Shown piece after piece: positions 23,540 to 47,408 of a stretch of 64,000 nucleotides of DNA (position 1 is the stretch's first letter; every line of letters begins with the position of its first letter). The stretch covers positions 63,612,001-63,676,000 of the forward strand of contig OZ024744.1 in NCBI GenBank assembly GCA_964016885.1, in the 5' to 3' direction. The notes under the pieces were generated by a model that searched no databases, was not told where the DNA came from, and saw only the letters and a program-made list of their open reading frames with translations. Both the position numbers and the translations under genes were made by a program. This DNA is from Eledone cirrhosa. Its lineage: Eukaryota.

Positions 23540-25380
23540 ATTTATTAAAATAACAAATTAAAGTTTAAGCAAAGAATCACTGCTTTCACCCAAAACGGGA
23601 TCTTTTGAAACTAAGAAAAAAAACAAAATGTGAACGCAAAAGTAAATATTTTGAAAAACGTTGCAATTGAACCTGGTAAGAAACGTTTCTTTGAGGCTTT
23701 CCCATCTATCTACAAATGAGCATATTTTCACCGAACATTCCACATATTACAATGAAGCTCTTGCTTGGAGTAGATTTGTCGATAAGGGAGCATAAACCTA
23801 GGAATGATAGATCCCAACGCATTATATGGTATAACCCACCATATAATATGGAGGTGGCCATACCATTAGCTAAGATCTTTCTCTCCCCTATTAAGAAGCA
23901 TTCTCCTCAGCACCTAAATATAATAACATTTTTAATAGAAATACCATTAAATTATTTTACTCTATGATTCCTAACTTTGCACATAACATCACTGCTTCAA
24001 ATTTAGCTAAATTACCTAGCCGTAGGAACACGTGCAACCCTGTAGTTAGTACTAACTGTAATTTTAGGAACCGGGTTGACTGCCCTCTATCCGGGAAAAG
24101 CCTCTCCAGTAATATTGTCTACAAATGTAAGGTTGAAACACCCATGTCTAGTAGGGCCTACATAGGGTTAACCGCCAATAGATTCAAGCAGCGTCTTTAC
24201 ATGCACACCCATTCTTTTCTTAACCCTTTAAGAAGGAATATGACGTCACTTTCAGCTTATATCTGGAGTTTAAAAGACAACCACACTCAATATAGGTTAC
24301 ACTGGGAGATCCTAGCTAAAGCTAGATCGTATAACGGAAATAAAAGGCCATGCGGTTTTTGCGCCGTTGAAGCCATGGAAATACTCTACGCCAATGACCA
24401 AATCCGAGGCAATTTCGGCTTGTAAACATAAATTGCATAAAACTTTCCTGTATTACAGCCCCACATTATACCCTAACGGATAGTACGATCTATACGCAGA
24501 TATTTTACATCTTGATGTGGTAGCTAAGTATATATTATGTTTATACCATTACTTATTTGTATAGGTAAGTATACCTTACCCATATGTTTTGTGGAGGTAC
24601 GTATACTTTCTCGTACGTATGCTCGTATTTGTTATAGGTGTATATATTATATATTCTGGTATATGTGTTTATGGTTATGTGTATTTTGTGTTTGTGTGTG
24701 TGTGTATGCGTACATTGTTTTGGTATACGTACGTTTGGTGAACATATGTATTTACTGTAGGTGTGTGTGTGCGGTATATACGTATTTATGTGTGTTTATA
24801 TACGTTTATATAATTATATGTATACACACACACATATATTTTTTATGTGTATTTGGTGTATACGTTTGAATGTGTGCGGATACATGTCGCGCATGTTGAT
24901 GTGCATGTTATGCATGCATGGCGAGTGTTTTCGCGTATGCACATGTATGTATGTATATAGATGTGTGTATGTATATATTTAATTATTATTACTTTTATGA
25001 TTTCAATAACCTCTGTCATTTTCTTTCTACTAATTTATTTACATTATTCTTAACTCCAAAGCTGAGAATCATTCAGTTTCCTAAATAGAATATTAGTCTA
25101 CGACTCCATTTATACCATAAAGTGGTTTGTCTTTGCGTGTAATTGTTCTCATCTCTCCACATGACTACGTATTATCTTCGCTTTTTTCCATTCATTGCCA
25201 GGGAATGTCTTCACGAACCAAAGTATCGCCTTCCTGTTTTCCTTCGGTTGCAGCGTTTTTCGAAATATTTACTTCTGCGTTCAGATTGTTTTTTTTGATT
25301 TTTTTTCAGTTTCAGAAGATCCCGTTAAAGATGAAAGCAGCGATTGTTTGCTTAGACTTTAATCTGTTATTTTAATAAAT
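23540..25380 (+). mobile_element. 5'-truncated PLE: GIY-YIG remnant (23790-24425), GT-rich 3' UTR, pLTR, and inverted pLTR piece at the 5' end
   Basis: IIWYNPPYN...CNFRNRVDCPL...VYKC...YIGLT; 23545-23612 is an inverted copy of 25308-25378. Confidence 0.88.
25308..25358 (+). ncRNA. Hammerhead-like motif with CAGAAGA core (family E)
   Basis: AGTTT-CAGAAGA-stem II-GAAAGCA...TGCTT-AGACT; other copies at 23562-23612 (-) and 47412-47459 (+). Confidence 0.55.
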
Positions 25381-26040
25381 ACTAGCAGTGTATCCCGGCG
25401 TTGCACGGGTAAGAACATTGGTAATGGCACCTCCAATGAGAAACGTTTATTTGTGAGTGCCTGTTAAAAACTCACGAAAATATACCGACAGGAAACTTGT
25501 TTTATTTGGAGAAAATTAAGAAGTTGAAAGTACAGTTTAGCTGTCTATGTGCATTGTTCATAGAAATATTGTTGAGCCCCTTCTTTTCATACTCCTTCTG
25601 TGACAGTTGTCCCCTGGCGTTTCCACTCTGTTTTGGCCTATTGGAGTAAATGTGAAAGAGAAAGTCACAGGTTAAGTTGGCAGAAGGTTCCAGTGTCCTA
25701 GCAATAAGGCATAGGCTACTTACCTCAAAAGTTCATTCGCACTCTATCCACTAAGTTATTCTTTCTCTCTATCCCTCTCGGTGCAGTCCCTTGCGAATTT
25801 CTCGCATAGGCCTGGTGTAGATTTGCACCTGATCCATCTGCCCGATGCACATGTCCGCTTTGTACGGCTTTTGATGGAAGGAGTGACCAGCAGTATGTTG
25901 TTCGGTATTATTACGAAAAGGTGTAGCAGAGAATCCCGCGTGAACTAACAGCTCGGGAAGAAACTACTTACCTCGAAGATTCATTTGCCATCGTTCTTGT
26001 CAAGAACGAGGAATTAGTATTTGTGAGGATATAATATAAT
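25381..26040 (+). mobile_element. Possible Helitron-like non-autonomous element
   Basis: Starts ACTAGC...CCCGGCGTTGCACGGG (CTAG end with subterminal hairpin); the other boundary is uncertain. Confidence 0.4.
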
Positions 26041-26046
26041 ACTTAA

Positions 26047-26620
26047 ACAAACCGAGCATTATAATAAATGTTCAGTAAACCCATACGTACATATATATAT
26101 ATATGTGTGTATATATATACAGACTACTGTACGTCTGTATACATATATGTGTGTACGTATACATACTTATATTAAGTATCAGCCGTACTAAGAGTGAGAA
26201 ATGAAATTTCATTTTTTCCATTTATCGTTTTCGGTACGCCTGGCCGACTAACTCACTTAATATGCAAATTAGGCTGCTCAGCCGTTAATATGCATAAGGA
26301 AAGTATATACTTTCAAACGTTCAATCAACTGACAGGAAGGTATACGGTGCTGATGACAGCTAATAAGCTAGAAACTAGTTCATCGTTCCTTTGTCAGTGT
26401 TGAACAAAATGGCAACGATGGTTGCCGAACACTGTATGGCTAATAATTTTGGCTGTTTGTTTACAAACAAACCGAGCATTATAATAAATGTTCGGTAAAC
26501 CCATACGTACATATATATGTGCATGAATGTATGTATGTATATATATACTACTGTACGTCTGTATACATACTTATATTTAAGTATCAGCCGTACTAAGAGT
26601 TAGAAATGAAATTTCATTTT
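26047..26620 (+). mobile_element. ~420-bp HHR-bearing unit with terminal redundancy (retrozyme-like), copy 1
   Basis: 26047-26224 repeated at 26467-26620; HHR at 26344-26386; no credible ORF. Confidence 0.75.
26344..26386 (+). ncRNA. Minimal type I hammerhead ribozyme (family F)
   Basis: ACGGTG-CTGATGA-cAGCTaataAGCTa-GAAAC-ta-GTT-CATCGT; palindromic stem III AACTAGTT. Confidence 0.85.
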
Positions 26621-26624
26621 TTCC

Positions 26625-26688
<64 letters not shown>

Positions 26689-26689
26689 A

Positions 26690-27105
26690 GGGCGGGTAAA
26701 ATTCCCAAGATCCATGGACGAGTTCTCTCCAGCGGTCTCTGTCCCTCATTATCGCTGCATTTCTTGCATCTCCAACAGACCAGTGTCTCTCCTTAGGGTA
26801 TCAACTTATGTTAACCTTGGTATTCCTTTTCCAGTGTGTCCACAGGGGCTCCCACAGGAGCACTGAGTGCAGTGTCAACTCTGTATGTCGGTGAGCATGT
26901 CCAGGTAACCTCAGTCTCCTCTGTGTCACTTTTGGGAGGCTCCCATACAGCTCTGAGTTTTTCATCCTCAGTGTATACTGATTAATGTTCAGAGCCATCC
27001 TCAGTATTCTCGTGTAGCACCCATCCACCATCTGAGTGAGTTTCTTGATCAGTGTCCAAGTCTCAGACCCGTACAGCAGCACAGACTCCACTACAGCAAT
27101 GTATA
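26690..27105 (-). mobile_element. Divergent RTE-like LINE 3' fragment
   Basis: ESVLLYGSETWTL...DGCYTRILRMALNI...RRLRLPGH. Confidence 0.8.
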
Positions 27106-27817: not shown

Positions 27818-27886
27818 ATATATTTTATCTGATGAAAACGTACTTAAACAACACTGTACCTTTGAAATATGTATAATAAAATATAT
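27818..27886 (+). ncRNA. Type I hammerhead ribozyme (family G)
   Basis: ATATATTTTAT-CTGATGA-stem II (GTAC/GTAC)-GAAAT-atgt-ATA-ATAAAATATAT; 11-bp stem I. Confidence 0.7.
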
Positions 27887-28071: not shown

Positions 28072-31000
28072 TCATCATCATCATCATCACCGTTTTACGT
28101 CCGTTCTTCCACGCTAGCATGGGTTAGACGGGTTGTCCTGTTGTGGGCAGTGTCTGGTCGGCTGACCATGCCTTGCTCATACAGGAACTGATCTGGCTTG
28201 ATTTCTACAGCTGGATGCCCTTCCTAACACCAACCTCATTTACAGTGAGTGCTGGGTGCTTTTTCGTGGCGCCTACACGTCCACTTTACAGTGTGGGCTG
28301 GGTGCTTTTTTGCCGTGGCACCTCCACGACCACCTTGCGGTGGGGGGGGGGGCATATTGTTTATATGCTTCAGCATGTACCCATGGGAGGTCGGGTACCC
28401 TGTATTACTGCGTGACGCCAGAAGTCACGGTCGTGTGTCATTGACTTTGAGAGGTGTAGTTGGGTAAGGTCGGCTCTTATCACCTCATCCCAAGTCATCT
28501 TGGGTCTCCCCACTCCGCGGTTTCCATCAACTTCTAGTGCTCTGCACCTTTTTATGGAGCTGTCATCCTTCATACGCATCACATGTCCATACCAGCGTAA
28601 CCGCCTCTCCTGCACGCAGCATTTGATTCCTCTTATGCTCAGTCTCTCTCTCAATTCATTTATGCTTTGTCGTTCACGTATATTACTGTTACACATCCAT
28701 CGGAGCATGCAGGCTTCGTTTCTCTCTAATCTACGTAAGTCTTCCACCTTCAGCGCCCAGGTCTCACTACCATGCAACATCGCTGTTCGGATACACGCAT
28801 CATACAGTCTGCCTTTCATTCTGAGGGAGAAGCCTTTTGCAGCTAGCAGTGGTAGTAGTTCCCTAAACTTCTTCCATCCCGTTCTTACCCTAGTTATTGT
28901 ACTTTCTGAGCACCCACCTCCGTTGCTAATTCGGTCACCTAGGTAGCAGAAGCTGTCTACTGTTTCTACAGGGCCCTCCCAGAGATTGGTGGTACTTGTT
29001 TCCTGTGGCTGTTTGCTTGCTGTTTCAGCACAGCTGCTGCATGTGAATCCTACATTCTTAATTAAGCTTCCTGAGATCCCGCTACATCTCTTGTGTACCC
29101 ATTGTTTGCATTTGGGGCAAAGAATGGAGTTCCTACCTACACCTTTCCTACATACTGAGCAAGGCCATTTCCCTGAGGGGATCTGGGTTCTGTTTTCTCG
29201 TCTACTTATAAGGACCTTAGTCTTTGTCATGTTGACTTTGAGGCCCTTTCTCTCTAGTCCCTGCTTCCAGGTTTGGAATTTATTCTCTAGTTCTACCATA
29301 GATTCAGCTATGAGTGCGAGGTCATCAGCATACAGGAGTTCCCATGGGCATCCGGTCTTAAACTCCTCCGTTATTGCCTGCAGGACTATGATGAACAGGA
29401 GAGGGCTAAGAACAGAGCCCTGGTGGACCCCAACCTGTACGCTAAATTCCTCGCTATACTCATTGCCAATCCTAACTTTGCTGACTGCTCCCCTATACAT
29501 GGCTTGTACCGCTTTCACAAGCCATTCATCTACTCCTAGTTTTCTAAGAGCCCACCAGATTACTGCACGTGGAACTCTGTCAAAGGCTTTCTCAAGGTCG
29601 ACAAATGCCAAGTAGAGTGGCTTACTTTTAGCTAGGTACTTTTCCTGTAATTGCCTCACAAGGAAGAGCGCATCAGTGGTGCCTTTCCCTGGAACAAACC
29701 CAAATTGCATCTCGTCTATATTCACCCGGTCCCTAATCAGCTGTGCTATAACTCTTTCTGTTACTTTCATGACCTGGTCCATCAACTTTATACCTCTATA
29801 GTTTCCTCTATCTAGTGCATCGCCTTTACCTTTGTAGCAGTTGACAATGATGCTACTGCACCAATCTTTTGGTATGGCCCCCTCTAGTATTACCTGGTTA
29901 ACGATACGTGTGGTTATAGTGTGACCTACAGACCCAGATGCCTTCAGCATCTCGGCAGCTATACCCGATGGACCGGTTGCCTTCCCTATCTTCATATCTC
30001 TGATTGCCTTACTTACTACGCTGCCGCTGACTTGTACTGCTGGTCCCTCTATAGGGTCTACGTGGGGTAGGGTCTCTTCTTCCCATGCATTCTCCTCATT
30101 TAGTAATCTATCATAATGACTCTTCCATGCATCTTTCTTCTCAGCACTTGTGAGGGCAAGCTCACCTTTATCATTCCGGATACACTTCTCTCCAATGACA
30201 TCACAACTATCTCTGACACACTGCCTCGCAATCTTGAATACCTCCTGTTTCTGGTCCTCACGTTGTAAAACATGCTTGAATTTTCTATCCTCTGCTTCCC
30301 TCCTAGCTAAGTATACTTGTCGCCTAGCTTCCCTCTTGGTCTCTATGTAATGTACCCTGCTCCCCCCGTTCTTCCATTCTTTCCATGCCTGTCTCTTGGC
30401 CTTGACTGCTTCATCTACCTTATTGTTCCACCACCAAGTCACTCTCCTCCTGCTTGAGGTCTTACTCCAGCCACAAACCTCATCCGTCGCCTCTAGTAAG
30501 TTATTTTTTAGGAACTCCCAGTTCTCTTCTACGTTAAATGTCTCTATCTGTTCTTCTTTACTGTCGTAGGCGTTGAGTAAAATATCTTTAAATCTGTTAC
30601 TGGTTGAGGGGACTTTCAGCTTCCAGATCTTTCTTCTCCAGGTTGGCCTCTGTTTCAGGGCTCGTCTAGTTCTGACCGTGAGGTCGCTGACAACTAAGCT
30701 ATGTTGGGATGTACATTCCTCACTAGGGAAGGCTTTTGTGTTTACGACCGTCCATCTGTCACGTCCTCTGATGAGAATAAAATCTAACTGACTAGAGTGC
30801 TCCCCTGATCTATAGGTGATCAGGTGGTTGTCGGGTTTTTTAAAGTTTGTGTTACATATCGACATGTCATTGGCGTCGCAGAATTCTAGAAGTCTGAATC
30901 CTTCCTCATTCCTTGTGCCAACTCCATGGCCTCCATGTACTCTATTGAAGCCGTCGCAGTGTTTACCTACGTGTCCGTTAAAATCTCCTGCAATGATTAG

Positions 31001-31489
31001 GAAGTCCTTGTCGTCTGTTAGAGCAGTAGTGTGTATTAGGGACTCGTAAAACCTATCCTTAAGTTCGTCTGGCAGCCCCGATTGGGGTGCGTAAGCTGAT
31101 ATTATTGTGGTAATTGTCTTATTCAGGACTAGTCTGAGTTTAATGATTCTTGCATTTACCCTGTACACTGAGATTACTTTATCTACCCACTTGTCAGCTA
31201 ATAGTATACCTACACCACCCATCCCATCGTCATTTCCCACCCAGAAAAATTTGTAGCACTGGCTTTTTCCTACAAGGACTCTAGCAGACCCTCCTCTCCA
31301 TCTAGTCTCTTGCACACAGCATACATCAACTTCCTTTCGCTCTAGCATTTCTACGATTTCTCCTGCTCTTCCTTTCATTGAGCCTACATTGATGGTACCA
31401 ACTCGGAGTTTTGGGCATTTGTCGACACTCGTAGGGGAGGGTCTCTGGGTTGGCGCTTCACGTGGGTGCTTGGTAGCTCGCAGATTCAT
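28072..31489 (-). mobile_element. RTE-clade LINE (subfamily A) with intact ORF, 3' UTR and (GAT)n tail
   Basis: Uninterrupted EN-RT ORF; tail at 28072-28090. Confidence 0.97.
28370..31489 (-). CDS. RTE ORF: APE endonuclease + reverse transcriptase + PHD-like Cys finger, 1039 aa from ATG 31489
   Basis: [45 protein letters not shown]; the track's extra N-terminus is microsatellite. Confidence 0.95.
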   Translation of the reverse strand: MNLRATKHPREAPTQRPSPTSVDKCPKLRVGTINVGSMKGRAGEIVEMLERKEVDVCCVQETRWRGGSARVLVGKSQCYKFFWVGNDDGMGGVGILLADKWVDKVISVYRVNARIIKLRLVLNKTITTIISAYAPQSGLPDELKDRFYESLIHTTALTDDKDFLIIAGDFNGHVGKHCDGFNRVHGGHGVGTRNEEGFRLLEFCDANDMSICNTNFKKPDNHLITYRSGEHSSQLDFILIRGRDRWTVVNTKAFPSEECTSQHSLVVSDLTVRTRRALKQRPTWRRKIWKLKVPSTSNRFKDILLNAYDSKEEQIETFNVEENWEFLKNNLLEATDEVCGWSKTSSRRRVTWWWNNKVDEAVKAKRQAWKEWKNGGSRVHYIETKREARRQVYLARREAEDRKFKHVLQREDQKQEVFKIARQCVRDSCDVIGEKCIRNDKGELALTSAEKKDAWKSHYDRLLNEENAWEEETLPHVDPIEGPAVQVSGSVVSKAIRDMKIGKATGPSGIAAEMLKASGSVGHTITTRIVNQVILEGAIPKDWCSSIIVNCYKGKGDALDRGNYRGIKLMDQVMKVTERVIAQLIRDRVNIDEMQFGFVPGKGTTDALFLVRQLQEKYLAKSKPLYLAFVDLEKAFDRVPRAVIWWALRKLGVDEWLVKAVQAMYRGAVSKVRIGNEYSEEFSVQVGVHQGSVLSPLLFIIVLQAITEEFKTGCPWELLYADDLALIAESMVELENKFQTWKQGLERKGLKVNMTKTKVLISRRENRTQIPSGKWPCSVCRKGVGRNSILCPKCKQWVHKRCSGISGSLIKNVGFTCSSCAETASKQPQETSTTNLWEGPVETVDSFCYLGDRISNGGGCSESTITRVRTGWKKFRELLPLLAAKGFSLRMKGRLYDACIRTAMLHGSETWALKVEDLRRLERNEACMLRWMCNSNIRERQSINELRERLSIRGIKCCVQERRLRWYGHVMRMKDDSSIKRCRALEVDGNRGVGRPKMTWDEVIRADLTQLHLSKSMTHDRDFWRHAVIQGTRPPMGTC

Positions 31490-31728
31490 ATTTGTGTGTG
31501 TATATATATATATGTGTGTGTGTGTATATATATGTGTGTGTGTGTATGTATATATATATATATATAACAAAGGAAATGTGGTAAGGAACCAGGTGGACCA
31601 TAACGCACCAAAGTACTCAATACTTAGGGTACTAGAGTTGGTAATAGGAACGAGTAGTGGGGTCCTACTCGTTCCTATATATATATATCTGTGTGTGTAT
31701 ATTATATAGGTGTATATTTATATATTTA

Positions 31729-34021: not shown

Positions 34022-34062
<41 letters not shown>

Positions 34063-34169
34063 TTCGTTTCTGAATTTGTTTAGCAAGATTCTTTATCTGA
34101 AAACGTGTGTTGAAACCGATATTGTTATACTTTAGGAGGGTCATGTTGCCAATAAGAAACACACGCACC

Positions 34170-35097
34170 AGTTGCTTTCACTTCAATTTATTGTAATAAA
34201 TTTATAAATTTAGGAATTTATAAATTTCTGGTTGGTTGGTTGGTTGGCTCCACAACCAGATAGTTGTTTATATATATTGTCAAAGTTCTTTCGTCACACA
34301 TTCTGTGACCTCTTCAGTGACTGGGGATTCTTTTCTTTGTTTTTGTGCCTCTCCTTTGTTCTGTCCTACGCCATCTTGTTTTTGTGTGCGTGTTCTGTGC
34401 TTAGTTTGCGCATGTGTTACATCCGGGTGTCTGTGTGTGTTTATATTCATTTATTTATTTATTTACATGTTACTGGTTGGTTGTTTGTTCTATGTGTGTG
34501 TGTGTTTTCATTTTGTCCTTAATTGTAAGTTGTGTGGTTGCTGTTCCACTAATGTTTTCTATTTAATTTTGGTTGTAATTCATTTATGTTTATTGCCTCT
34601 GTGATTTGTCTAAACATTGTGTCTTTTCTGTGTGTAGATTTTAATTTTATTTCTATGTTCTCTAATTTACCCTTATGTTCTATTTTAGCATGTTGGTAGA
34701 GTACAGATGATTCTTTACTATCTTGAAGGTCTCGCCAGTGTTCATTTATCCATTCCCCTACACTACGAGCTGTCTCACCTATGTACTCTATATTTTTATC
34801 TCTACATTGTCCTTCAGTACATCTTATGCTATATACTACATTTCTAGTTTTACAGTTAATATGGGGGCTTAATTTACAGATTATACATTTCTTATCTATA
34901 CAGGAGGTCTTTGAAAAGGGTATATCTTGCTAATAAGTGTTTTTAGGTACCTGGTCTTTCTACTATCTTAATATTGAGTTTATGTTTATCTAGGGCCCTT
35001 CTAAATTTGTAAGCTAATTCACCTCTAGGGGTTGTATCGATGAACATTACACTCTGGTATTTATTGCTATCATACCATGAGTTTATTCTATTAGCCG
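34170..35097 (-). mobile_element. PLE 3' fragment (GIY-YIG remnant plus pLTR)
   Basis: VMFIDTTPRGELA...IVERPGT...VVYSIRC...YIGETARS...NEH; HHR downstream. Confidence 0.85.
34279..34321 (-). ncRNA. Minimal hammerhead ribozyme (family H)
   Basis: Minus strand GTCA-CTGAAGA-gGTCACAgaatgTGTGAC-GAAAG-aa-CTT-TGAC. Confidence 0.75.
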
Positions 35098-35670
35098 TAT
35101 ATATATGTGTATGTATGTATGTGTATATGGATGTGTATGTATGTGTATGTGTGTACACATGGACTAGAGTAAGTATGTATATATGTGTGTGTCTATACGT
35201 GTGTATATATAAAGATAAGTTGAGTATGAAAATGTATACACATGAGCGCGTATGTATGTACATGAATACATGTGTGTATATATATGTGTATGCATGTGTA
35301 TATATATGTAAGTATGAATATGTGAATTGTGAGTATATGTATTTTGTAGAGGTGTGCAAATATATTTGTGTGTGAATGCGTGGGTGAAAGAATACGTACA
35401 CTTGAAAGAAAAATTTAAGTCTGAATGTTAAGTGCAAACACAAAACCAACCACGCATATCTTTACTATCTCTAATCCTTCTATAGATTTAGAAAAATAAC
35501 CAATAATATATTCCATAAAAAATGTCAAAACAACAGATGGGAATCTAATTACTCACTGCCACCAAGAATTCCCACTGCTATCGAAAAACCACTCCTTCAA
35601 CTATTCTTCTAACAACTTCACCCCTCCCTCCTAATATTCTCTATAAAAACTAAATAGGTCCTCAGTAATA

Positions 35671-35821: not shown

Positions 35822-38494
<2,673 letters not shown>

Positions 38495-46868: not shown

Positions 46869-46869
46869 A

Positions 46870-47408
46870 TATAAGTATGTATATGTACATACATATATGT
46901 ATACAGACGTACAGTAGTATGTATATATATATACATGCACACATATATATATGTACGTATGGATTCACCGAACATTTATGATAATGCTCGGTGTGTTTGT
47001 AAACAAATATCCCGAATTAAGCCGTACAGTGTCTAGCAACCATCGTTGCTCATTGTTCAACACTGACAAAGGAACGCTGTACTAGCTATCGACAAAGGAA
47101 CGCTTATTAGCTATCGTCAGCAGCGTATACCTTCCTGCCAGATGATTGAACGTCTGAAAGTATATACCTTCCTGATGCATATTAACGGCTGAGCAACCTA
47201 ATTTGCATATCGAGTGAGTTAATCGGCCGGGGTACGAAAACGATAAATGGAAAAAAATGAAACGAAATTTCTCACTCTTAGTACGGCTGTTACTTAAATA
47301 TAAGTATGTATACGTACATACATATATGTATACAGACGTACATACATATATGTATACGGCCGTACTAAGAGTGAGAAATGAAATTTCGTTTCATTTTTCC
47401 CCGTTTAT
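46870..47408 (-). mobile_element. Retrozyme-like unit, copy 2 (different permutation, damaged HHR, 5' inversion at 47357-47408)
   Basis: Reverse-complement homology to 26130-26580; 46871-46912 repeated at 47300-47342. Confidence 0.72.

Follow-up and report, generated by a model that had tools for sequence, protein, structure and literature searches.

Metazoan non-LTR retrozymes, as described in PMC7229834 and 10.64898/2026.07.22.740005, consist of ORF-less units of 150-450 bp with a GC content below 50%, a type I hammerhead and no LTR/PBS/PPT layout; they form tandem copies, have a self-paired fold and are co-resident with PLEs. A PLE origin of animal retrozymes has already been argued (10.64898/2026.07.22.740005), and the published case for their mobilisation by PLEs is built on co-occurrence and pLTR similarity (PMC7229834; 10.64898/2026.07.22.740005). 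PLE insertions carry a pLTR, an inverted copy and a one-sided tail (PMC8557442), and in vitro this tail corresponds to the interval that separates two internal starts of reverse transcription (PMC11167929). The endonuclease-bearing PLEs portrayed in PMC8557442, PMC11167929 and PMC4209133 are further marked by 5' truncation, an inverted 5' arm, (TA)n targets and a hammerhead with a palindromic helix III within the repeat. Minimal PLE hammerheads are reported to combine a large helix II with a short helix I and to lack helix III (PMC4209133). Non-autonomous Chlamys elements, e.g. MRC1 (PMC8557442), are described as non-coding PLE passengers with pLTRs and head-to-tail copies; their 3' ends resemble those of their autonomous families, and most of them have no hammerhead.

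Here we describe a repeat in a 64,000-nucleotide stretch of Eledone cirrhosa DNA (the whole of it is called the window below) that shares all of these retrozyme features and that a PLE reverse transcriptase-endonuclease, acting in trans, probably copied from RNA into the chromosome. Judged by sequence, its family is an apparently new member of the metazoan non-LTR retrozymes or non-autonomous PLEs. Among the papers listed for octopus or cephalopod hammerheads, ribozymes and retrozymes, and for non-autonomous PLEs with tail, inversion and hammerhead, none describes it, and the supplements of PMC7229834 and PMC4209133 could list it; the helix II motif of the family is absent from the supplement of PMC8557442. 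At the family level, we found units of retrozyme size with a GC content below 50%, a type I hammerhead in each unit and tandems with two ribozymes, together with the insertion anatomy of PLEs, i.e. fixed 3' ends with an optional tail, 5' truncation, partial tandems and an inverted 5' arm. As in the published axolotl motifs, helix III is palindromic and weak, and helix II has a mismatch at its base. In contrast to the long arrays described for metazoan retrozymes, the copies are mostly dispersed insertions of 1-1.5 units, often with two arms. The ends of a PLE tail are directly visible here, unlike in those retrozymes, whereas ribozyme activity and circles are predictions for this family. Compared with the endonuclease-bearing PLEs (PMC8557442; PMC11167929; PMC4209133), whose 5' truncation, pLTR, inverted arm, one-end tail, (TA)n targets and hammerhead it shares, the family has no RT/GIY-YIG ORF and a tail of 54-59 nt rather than 30-40. 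Its helix I is long and its helix II short, unlike in the minimal PLE ribozymes of PMC4209133. The likeness to the Chlamys elements covers the non-coding passenger state, the pLTRs and the head-to-tail copies, but no autonomous partner with a similar 3' end was found here.

The repeat in the window has a period of 420, with matching that begins at 26045/26465, and its parts are as follows (window positions):

26045-26629 (+), whole insertion of subfamily A, 1.4 units, one-armed, with a variable 5' end and a fixed 3' end at site E2
26045-26464 (+), first full-length unit period, its phase set by the 5' break and not by a biological start
26465-26629 (+), partial second unit of 165 nt with a 20-nt deletion (pLTR-like redundancy)
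26082-26165 (+), internal TA/TG microsatellite, predicted to fold as a single long hairpin
26172-26224 (+), internal copy of the tail, from E1 (26171) to E2 (26224)
26319-26405 (+), predicted type I hammerhead with an extended helix I, its pairs kept between subfamilies
26350-26380 (+), catalytic core CUGAUGA...GAAA with a C10.1·A11.1 mismatch (26357/26370)
26576-26629 (+), terminal 54-nt tail, with E1 at 26575 and E2 at 26629
26628-26686 (no strand), (TA)n target repeat adjoining the second copy

The 420-bp ORF-less unit repeats in tandem as a closed period with no internal region, and the GC content over 26001-27000 is 36%. The earlier note had read the locus as a ~420-bp unit followed by ~150 nt of a second one ending at 26620: the period held, but the second piece is 165 nt long and runs to 26629. 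The terminal redundancy that it had pointed out is also present, but as the ordinary partial tandem of a PLE with fixed PLE-type ends. That no credible ORF exists was confirmed, the window unit having ATG frames of at most 37 aa (+) and 49 aa (-); across the subfamilies the longest span 37-64 aa and none is conserved between them. Both the hammerhead descriptor and the sequence indicated a sole ribozyme core within 26045-26629. Because it has one ribozyme only, the window copy is predicted to be unable to release a unit-length RNA. Under the definition of Li et al., by which an 'active' copy has two ribozymes, this lowers the claim for the copy and not for the family. The window copy is thus an ordinary truncated member of a minor subfamily and by itself unremarkable. 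Its left arm may never have been made, or may have been lost; neither a left arm nor a target duplication could be defined at the locus. A dispersed repeat at 25540-26003 (1,018 candidates) breaks at 26003 in a 9-bp fold-back; if the retrozyme copy once had a left arm, it may have been lost there. The retrozyme unit was present in none of nine other copies of that repeat, which is therefore unrelated. The repeat search of the whole window was dominated by TA repeats.

The hammerhead begins with a helix I of 6 bp (ACGGUG at 26344-49 with CAUCGU at 26381-86) that extends into the long stem 26319-26405, whose fold has a z-score of -4.35 that none of 200 shuffled sequences reached. CUGAUGA at 26350-56 is followed by a helix II of 4 bp (AGCU/AGCU) and GAAA at 26371-74, helix III has 2 bp within the palindrome AACUAGUU at 26373-80, and the cut site, read from the sequence, is predicted after U26380 (GUU). 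GUU is counted among the cleavable NUH triplets in PMC3138052. The hammerhead descriptor matched twice in the window compared to no match in 100 shuffled windows, while a search of 26180-26500 against Rfam yielded no hammerhead and the best 150 rows for the whole window were microsatellite noise. The motif had earlier been called a clean minimal hammerhead. It does lie at 26344-26386 with a palindromic helix III, but it is not minimal in the sense of PMC4209133, and it is not clean because C10.1·A11.1 replaces a conserved G-C and the active monomer fold is predicted ~8 kcal/mol above the minimum-energy fold. Self-pairing of the palindrome is predicted at -6.6 kcal/mol, and this, together with the costly monomer fold, would be consistent with ribozymes of the dimer type as presented in PMC4209133. 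Our literature search on the kinetics of a 10.1/11.1 mismatch returned nothing relevant. The circular fold of the unit has a z-score of -7 to -9.6 and is highly self-paired. When the subfamily majorities were compared, 16 of 17 substituted pairs still paired, three of them with both sides changed, although the four majority sequences scored here had also served to predict the structure; two pairs were lost by deletion in subfamily A and one in B1. When pairs were counted formally in 10 real copies, a change on both sides was seen in a single ribozyme pair.

The window repeat is a member of a dispersed high-copy family with a unit of 420-425 nt. In the genome (3.0 Gb) we counted 669 exact 36-nt cores of the GUU/C·A type and 9,986 exact GUA/U·U cores of a sister subfamily, with 0 in the control in either case. 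Corrected by the share of exact matches among the sampled cores (15/50 and 49/78), these numbers correspond to an estimated ~2,200 GUU and ~16,000 GUA copies. A tree of 79 full units, in which groups were chosen by eye and 64 of the units were assigned, resolved subfamily A, which is star-like and has C·A and GUU, a mixed and older group C with U·U, and the subfamilies B1/B2 with U·U and GUA. The units differ from their respective majorities by a median of 3.3% in A, 5.1% in C and 2.6% in B1/B2. The window copy belongs to subfamily A, as it differs from the A majority at 11 of 420 sites and from B at 41 of 408, and it is this subfamily that has the less canonical ribozyme. As the subfamilies differ naturally at the cut site (GUA versus GUU) and at 10.1/11.1, they could be used directly to ask if spread depends on ribozyme activity. 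Arrays of as many as five units occur (C1:19315051-19316768), and the frequency of tandems was taken from the sampled loci only. Contigs from two sequencing runs of unrecorded type reveal the presence and variants of the unit, among them the GUA form on a contig of a second organism. In the window itself, a second and more diverged copy of the family occupies 46869-47342 (-); it has a 9-nt insertion in the region of the ribozyme core, and a short piece in the opposite orientation lies at ~47318-47391.

The ends of the insertions were determined with anchors placed downstream of the core, which avoids selection for intact ribozymes. We took the first 100 of 1,178 matches listed for the A-type anchor, which also recovers group C (50/87 cores were C·A/GUU), and approximately the first 90 of 5,154 listed for the B-type anchor, all on contig C1. 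Arms were merged by genome coordinates and 4 arms at locus edges were dropped, leaving 92 + 74 = 166 arms. Their 5' ends were variable, while their 3' ends were fixed: 133/166 arms stopped at E1 or E2, which are 54-59 nt apart (~5% expected if uniform), and TATA or ATAT followed within 3 nt after 111 of these 133 ends. An inverted arm adjoined the 5' end in 85 insertions, and 67 arms had no adjacent inverted arm. The opposed arms used one site each, with E1 and E2 combined in 47 of 48 assignable two-armed insertions (p 2e-13). The tail-less E1 arm reached past its partner (by >30 nt at the 5' side) in 28 of the 47, the tailed arm did so in 15, and in 4 the two ended within 30 nt of each other. 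Because the E1 arm so often outreaches the tailed arm, it is not a fold-back copy, and each arm needed its own priming. At the 62 junctions between arms, which were scored strictly (21 had inserts, 3 were unscorable and 15 negative), an overlap of ≥3 nt was seen in 11/23 cleanly scored junctions (11/62 of all) compared to 5.9% expected. Over half of the arms (86/166) were longer than one unit, 22/166 contained two cores, 14/166 exceeded two units and some exceeded three. The family thus displays the PLE tail and the two-armed footprint directly.

The cleavage site was traversed by 155 of the 159 arms that reach it, which rules out a cut linear monomer as the usual template but is compatible with a ligated circle as well as with an uncleaved precursor. 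The 5' ends did not pile up at the cut site (4 versus 4.6 expected), and in this respect the genome gives no indication of cleavage.

Two sampled insertions were rich in A>G changes on the ribozyme strand in both arms, and none was rich in T>C. In L160 (G000:C1:53728444-53728880), the opposed arms overlap over 169 nt with 56 adenosines, 12 of which were changed A>G in both arms, and the 5' neighbour was A or U in 11 of the 12 and G in none (p 0.02). ADAR prefers a 5' A or U, and not G. In L149 (G000:C1:21377653-21378153) seven A>G changes were common to both arms. The shared edits of both insertions flank the cut site on both sides. Those of L160 strike A15.1 of the core and the arms of L149 both carry G16.2>C, indicating that templates with damaged cores were copied. 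Rare changes in general were 20-40 times more commonly shared within than between insertions; 14 were A>G and 2 T>C, with 7 of the 14 coming from L160 and L149. Single A>G changes common to tandem units were found at L159, L214, L255 and L267, but they were few. Pieces within one insertion were hardly closer to each other than pieces from different insertions (0.091/0.087 versus 0.089 with the A-type anchor and 0.036/0.043 versus 0.052 with the B-type anchor). The ribozyme-strand edits common to both arms point to an RNA template and tie both arms to one RNA lineage. Two helix I sites were edited in both L160 and L149.

Which element could have supplied the protein? In the upstream flanks of the 166 arms we found no joined PLE ORF in the sense orientation, and in none of them were an RT and a GIY-YIG ORF placed between pLTRs as in an autonomous PLE. 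Two sense PLE matches lay 200-750 nt from arms, one a mid-ORF fragment and one the 3' end of another family. The search for a helper used protein searches with the PLE fragments of the window and seven long loci, and many PLE families lie outside this sample. It yielded two candidate helpers. The first is a PLE family that inserts at TA targets, has two ends ~90 nt apart and retains intact frames of 713 aa (L121-L123); we take it to be Hydra-like from its motifs and short ORF rather than from a tree. The other, a second PLE family, has its own hammerhead and ends ~63 nt apart. The unit shared no sequence with either of these families or with the 3' regions of ten other PLE fragments; by eye, a 16-nt likeness to the end of the second family can be seen. 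Pfam names neither PLE protein. One of the intact frames (L123, G000:C2:406112500-406121000) is enclosed by a palindrome that spans 2.9 kb or more at 98% identity and takes in flanking DNA.

These data suggest the following course for the trans-mobilised repeat. A PLE protein would cut both strands of a TA repeat, each end would prime reverse transcription at the internal sites E1 and E2, as reported for PAc in vitro (PMC11167929), and the two cDNAs would be joined at short microhomologies. The template would span the ribozyme site. The likelier candidate for it would be a unit-length RNA closed by ligation into a circle; two ribozymes folding as a dimer would release it, and only a minority of copies have two. 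For this family we put the chance of such a circle at about even, and that of an uncleaved precursor below even. The 86 arms longer than one unit and the 22 with two cores favour a circle, and the long helix I would be expected to keep the cut ends together. A simple run round a circle predicts a constant stop rate of the arms, which was rejected (p 0.001), although the excess of arm lengths lies at the hairpin of the microsatellite, the region aligned with the least confidence. In the work on PAc, ribozyme mutants still inserted normally in vitro (PMC11167929), and 1/9 Xenopus dimers was cleaved in vitro according to 10.64898/2026.07.22.740005. The most specific version of this course is rather unlikely as a whole: one TA break, with its two ends priming a borrowed PLE reverse transcriptase on a single ADAR-edited circle past the ligated junction, as has been proposed for retrozymes and PLEs, and a GUU/C·A lineage that spreads with a down-tuned, circle-protecting ribozyme. 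If it were true, the genome would record the circle-templated, two-ended integration proposed for both.

The strongest competitor, which we consider possible but doubtful, is a non-autonomous PLE passenger copied from uncleaved linear read-through RNA of tandem or two-armed parents, with a weak or dispensable ribozyme and no circle. The core and helices, however, are kept across the four subfamily majorities with compensatory changes, and half of the arms exceed one unit, some of them three, though most potential parents are short. Read-through from a common parent also left no shared 5' flank: a common junction or breakpoint was absent among 58 non-unit flanks, a comparison of low power. Moreover, mussel and axolotl repeats of similar size have been demonstrated to form circles (PMC7229834). 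Much less probable is an origin from a rare autonomous PLE outside the sample, which would have left the copies behind as 5'-truncated stubs of its pLTR or as tandem pLTRs. Coding PLEs here have the same end anatomy, including two ends and TA targets, and 166 arms of many thousands were sampled, all from contig C1. Yet in every arm that is long enough the unit closes on itself, the sequence 3' of E2 returning to the ribozyme without an ORF, and the lack of a joined PLE ORF in all 166 flanks upholds the earlier view that this is no pLTR of a coding element.

An autonomous viroid-like replicon that passes from RNA to RNA, or a DNA satellite amplified by unequal crossing-over, we regard as very improbable. 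Such elements could account for the highly self-paired unit and for the short arrays of up to five units, but the copies are dispersed and mostly smaller than two units, reverse transcription would explain their ends, which are fixed and strand-specific, and the A>G edits on the sense strand, and the descriptor detected no minus-strand hammerhead in the window unit. Viroid-like RNA replicons often have ribozymes of both polarities. The 'circular-RNA replicon' of the earlier note is not borne out, since the copy has a single ribozyme and fixed PLE-type ends and nothing supports an RNA replicon. Its assignment to a retrozyme family stands, as the repeat is ORF-less, hammerhead-bearing, tandem-forming and of retrozyme size, and mobilisation by PLEs, which it took from the literature, is now backed by the two fixed 3' ends, the one-sided tail and the opposed arms.

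The window contains further elements. A 3' fragment of the Hydra-like PLE lies at 23695-25368 (+), and near its end (25310-25360) there is a hammerhead-like string, not favoured by the predicted fold, that reads CAGAAGA in place of CUGANGA and whose helix II has U·U at its base. The second PLE family is represented by a 3' fragment at 34050-35461 (-), which contains a frame resembling GIY-YIG and, in the 3' region, a minimal-type hammerhead. A sister family is represented by a two-armed insertion in (TA)n at 36165-36525, with a remnant GAAACTAGTTCA core end, a tail homologous to that of the unit (73% over 87 nt) and a similar small hairpin at the tail-less end. The hammerhead of another, very variable family, with an 11-bp helix I, is located at 27818-27886 (+) and recurs in many flanks of the sampled loci. 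Finally, an open frame of 1115 aa at 28370-31717 (-) combines an AP endonuclease, a reverse transcriptase and a PHD-like finger and appears to be an intact LINE.
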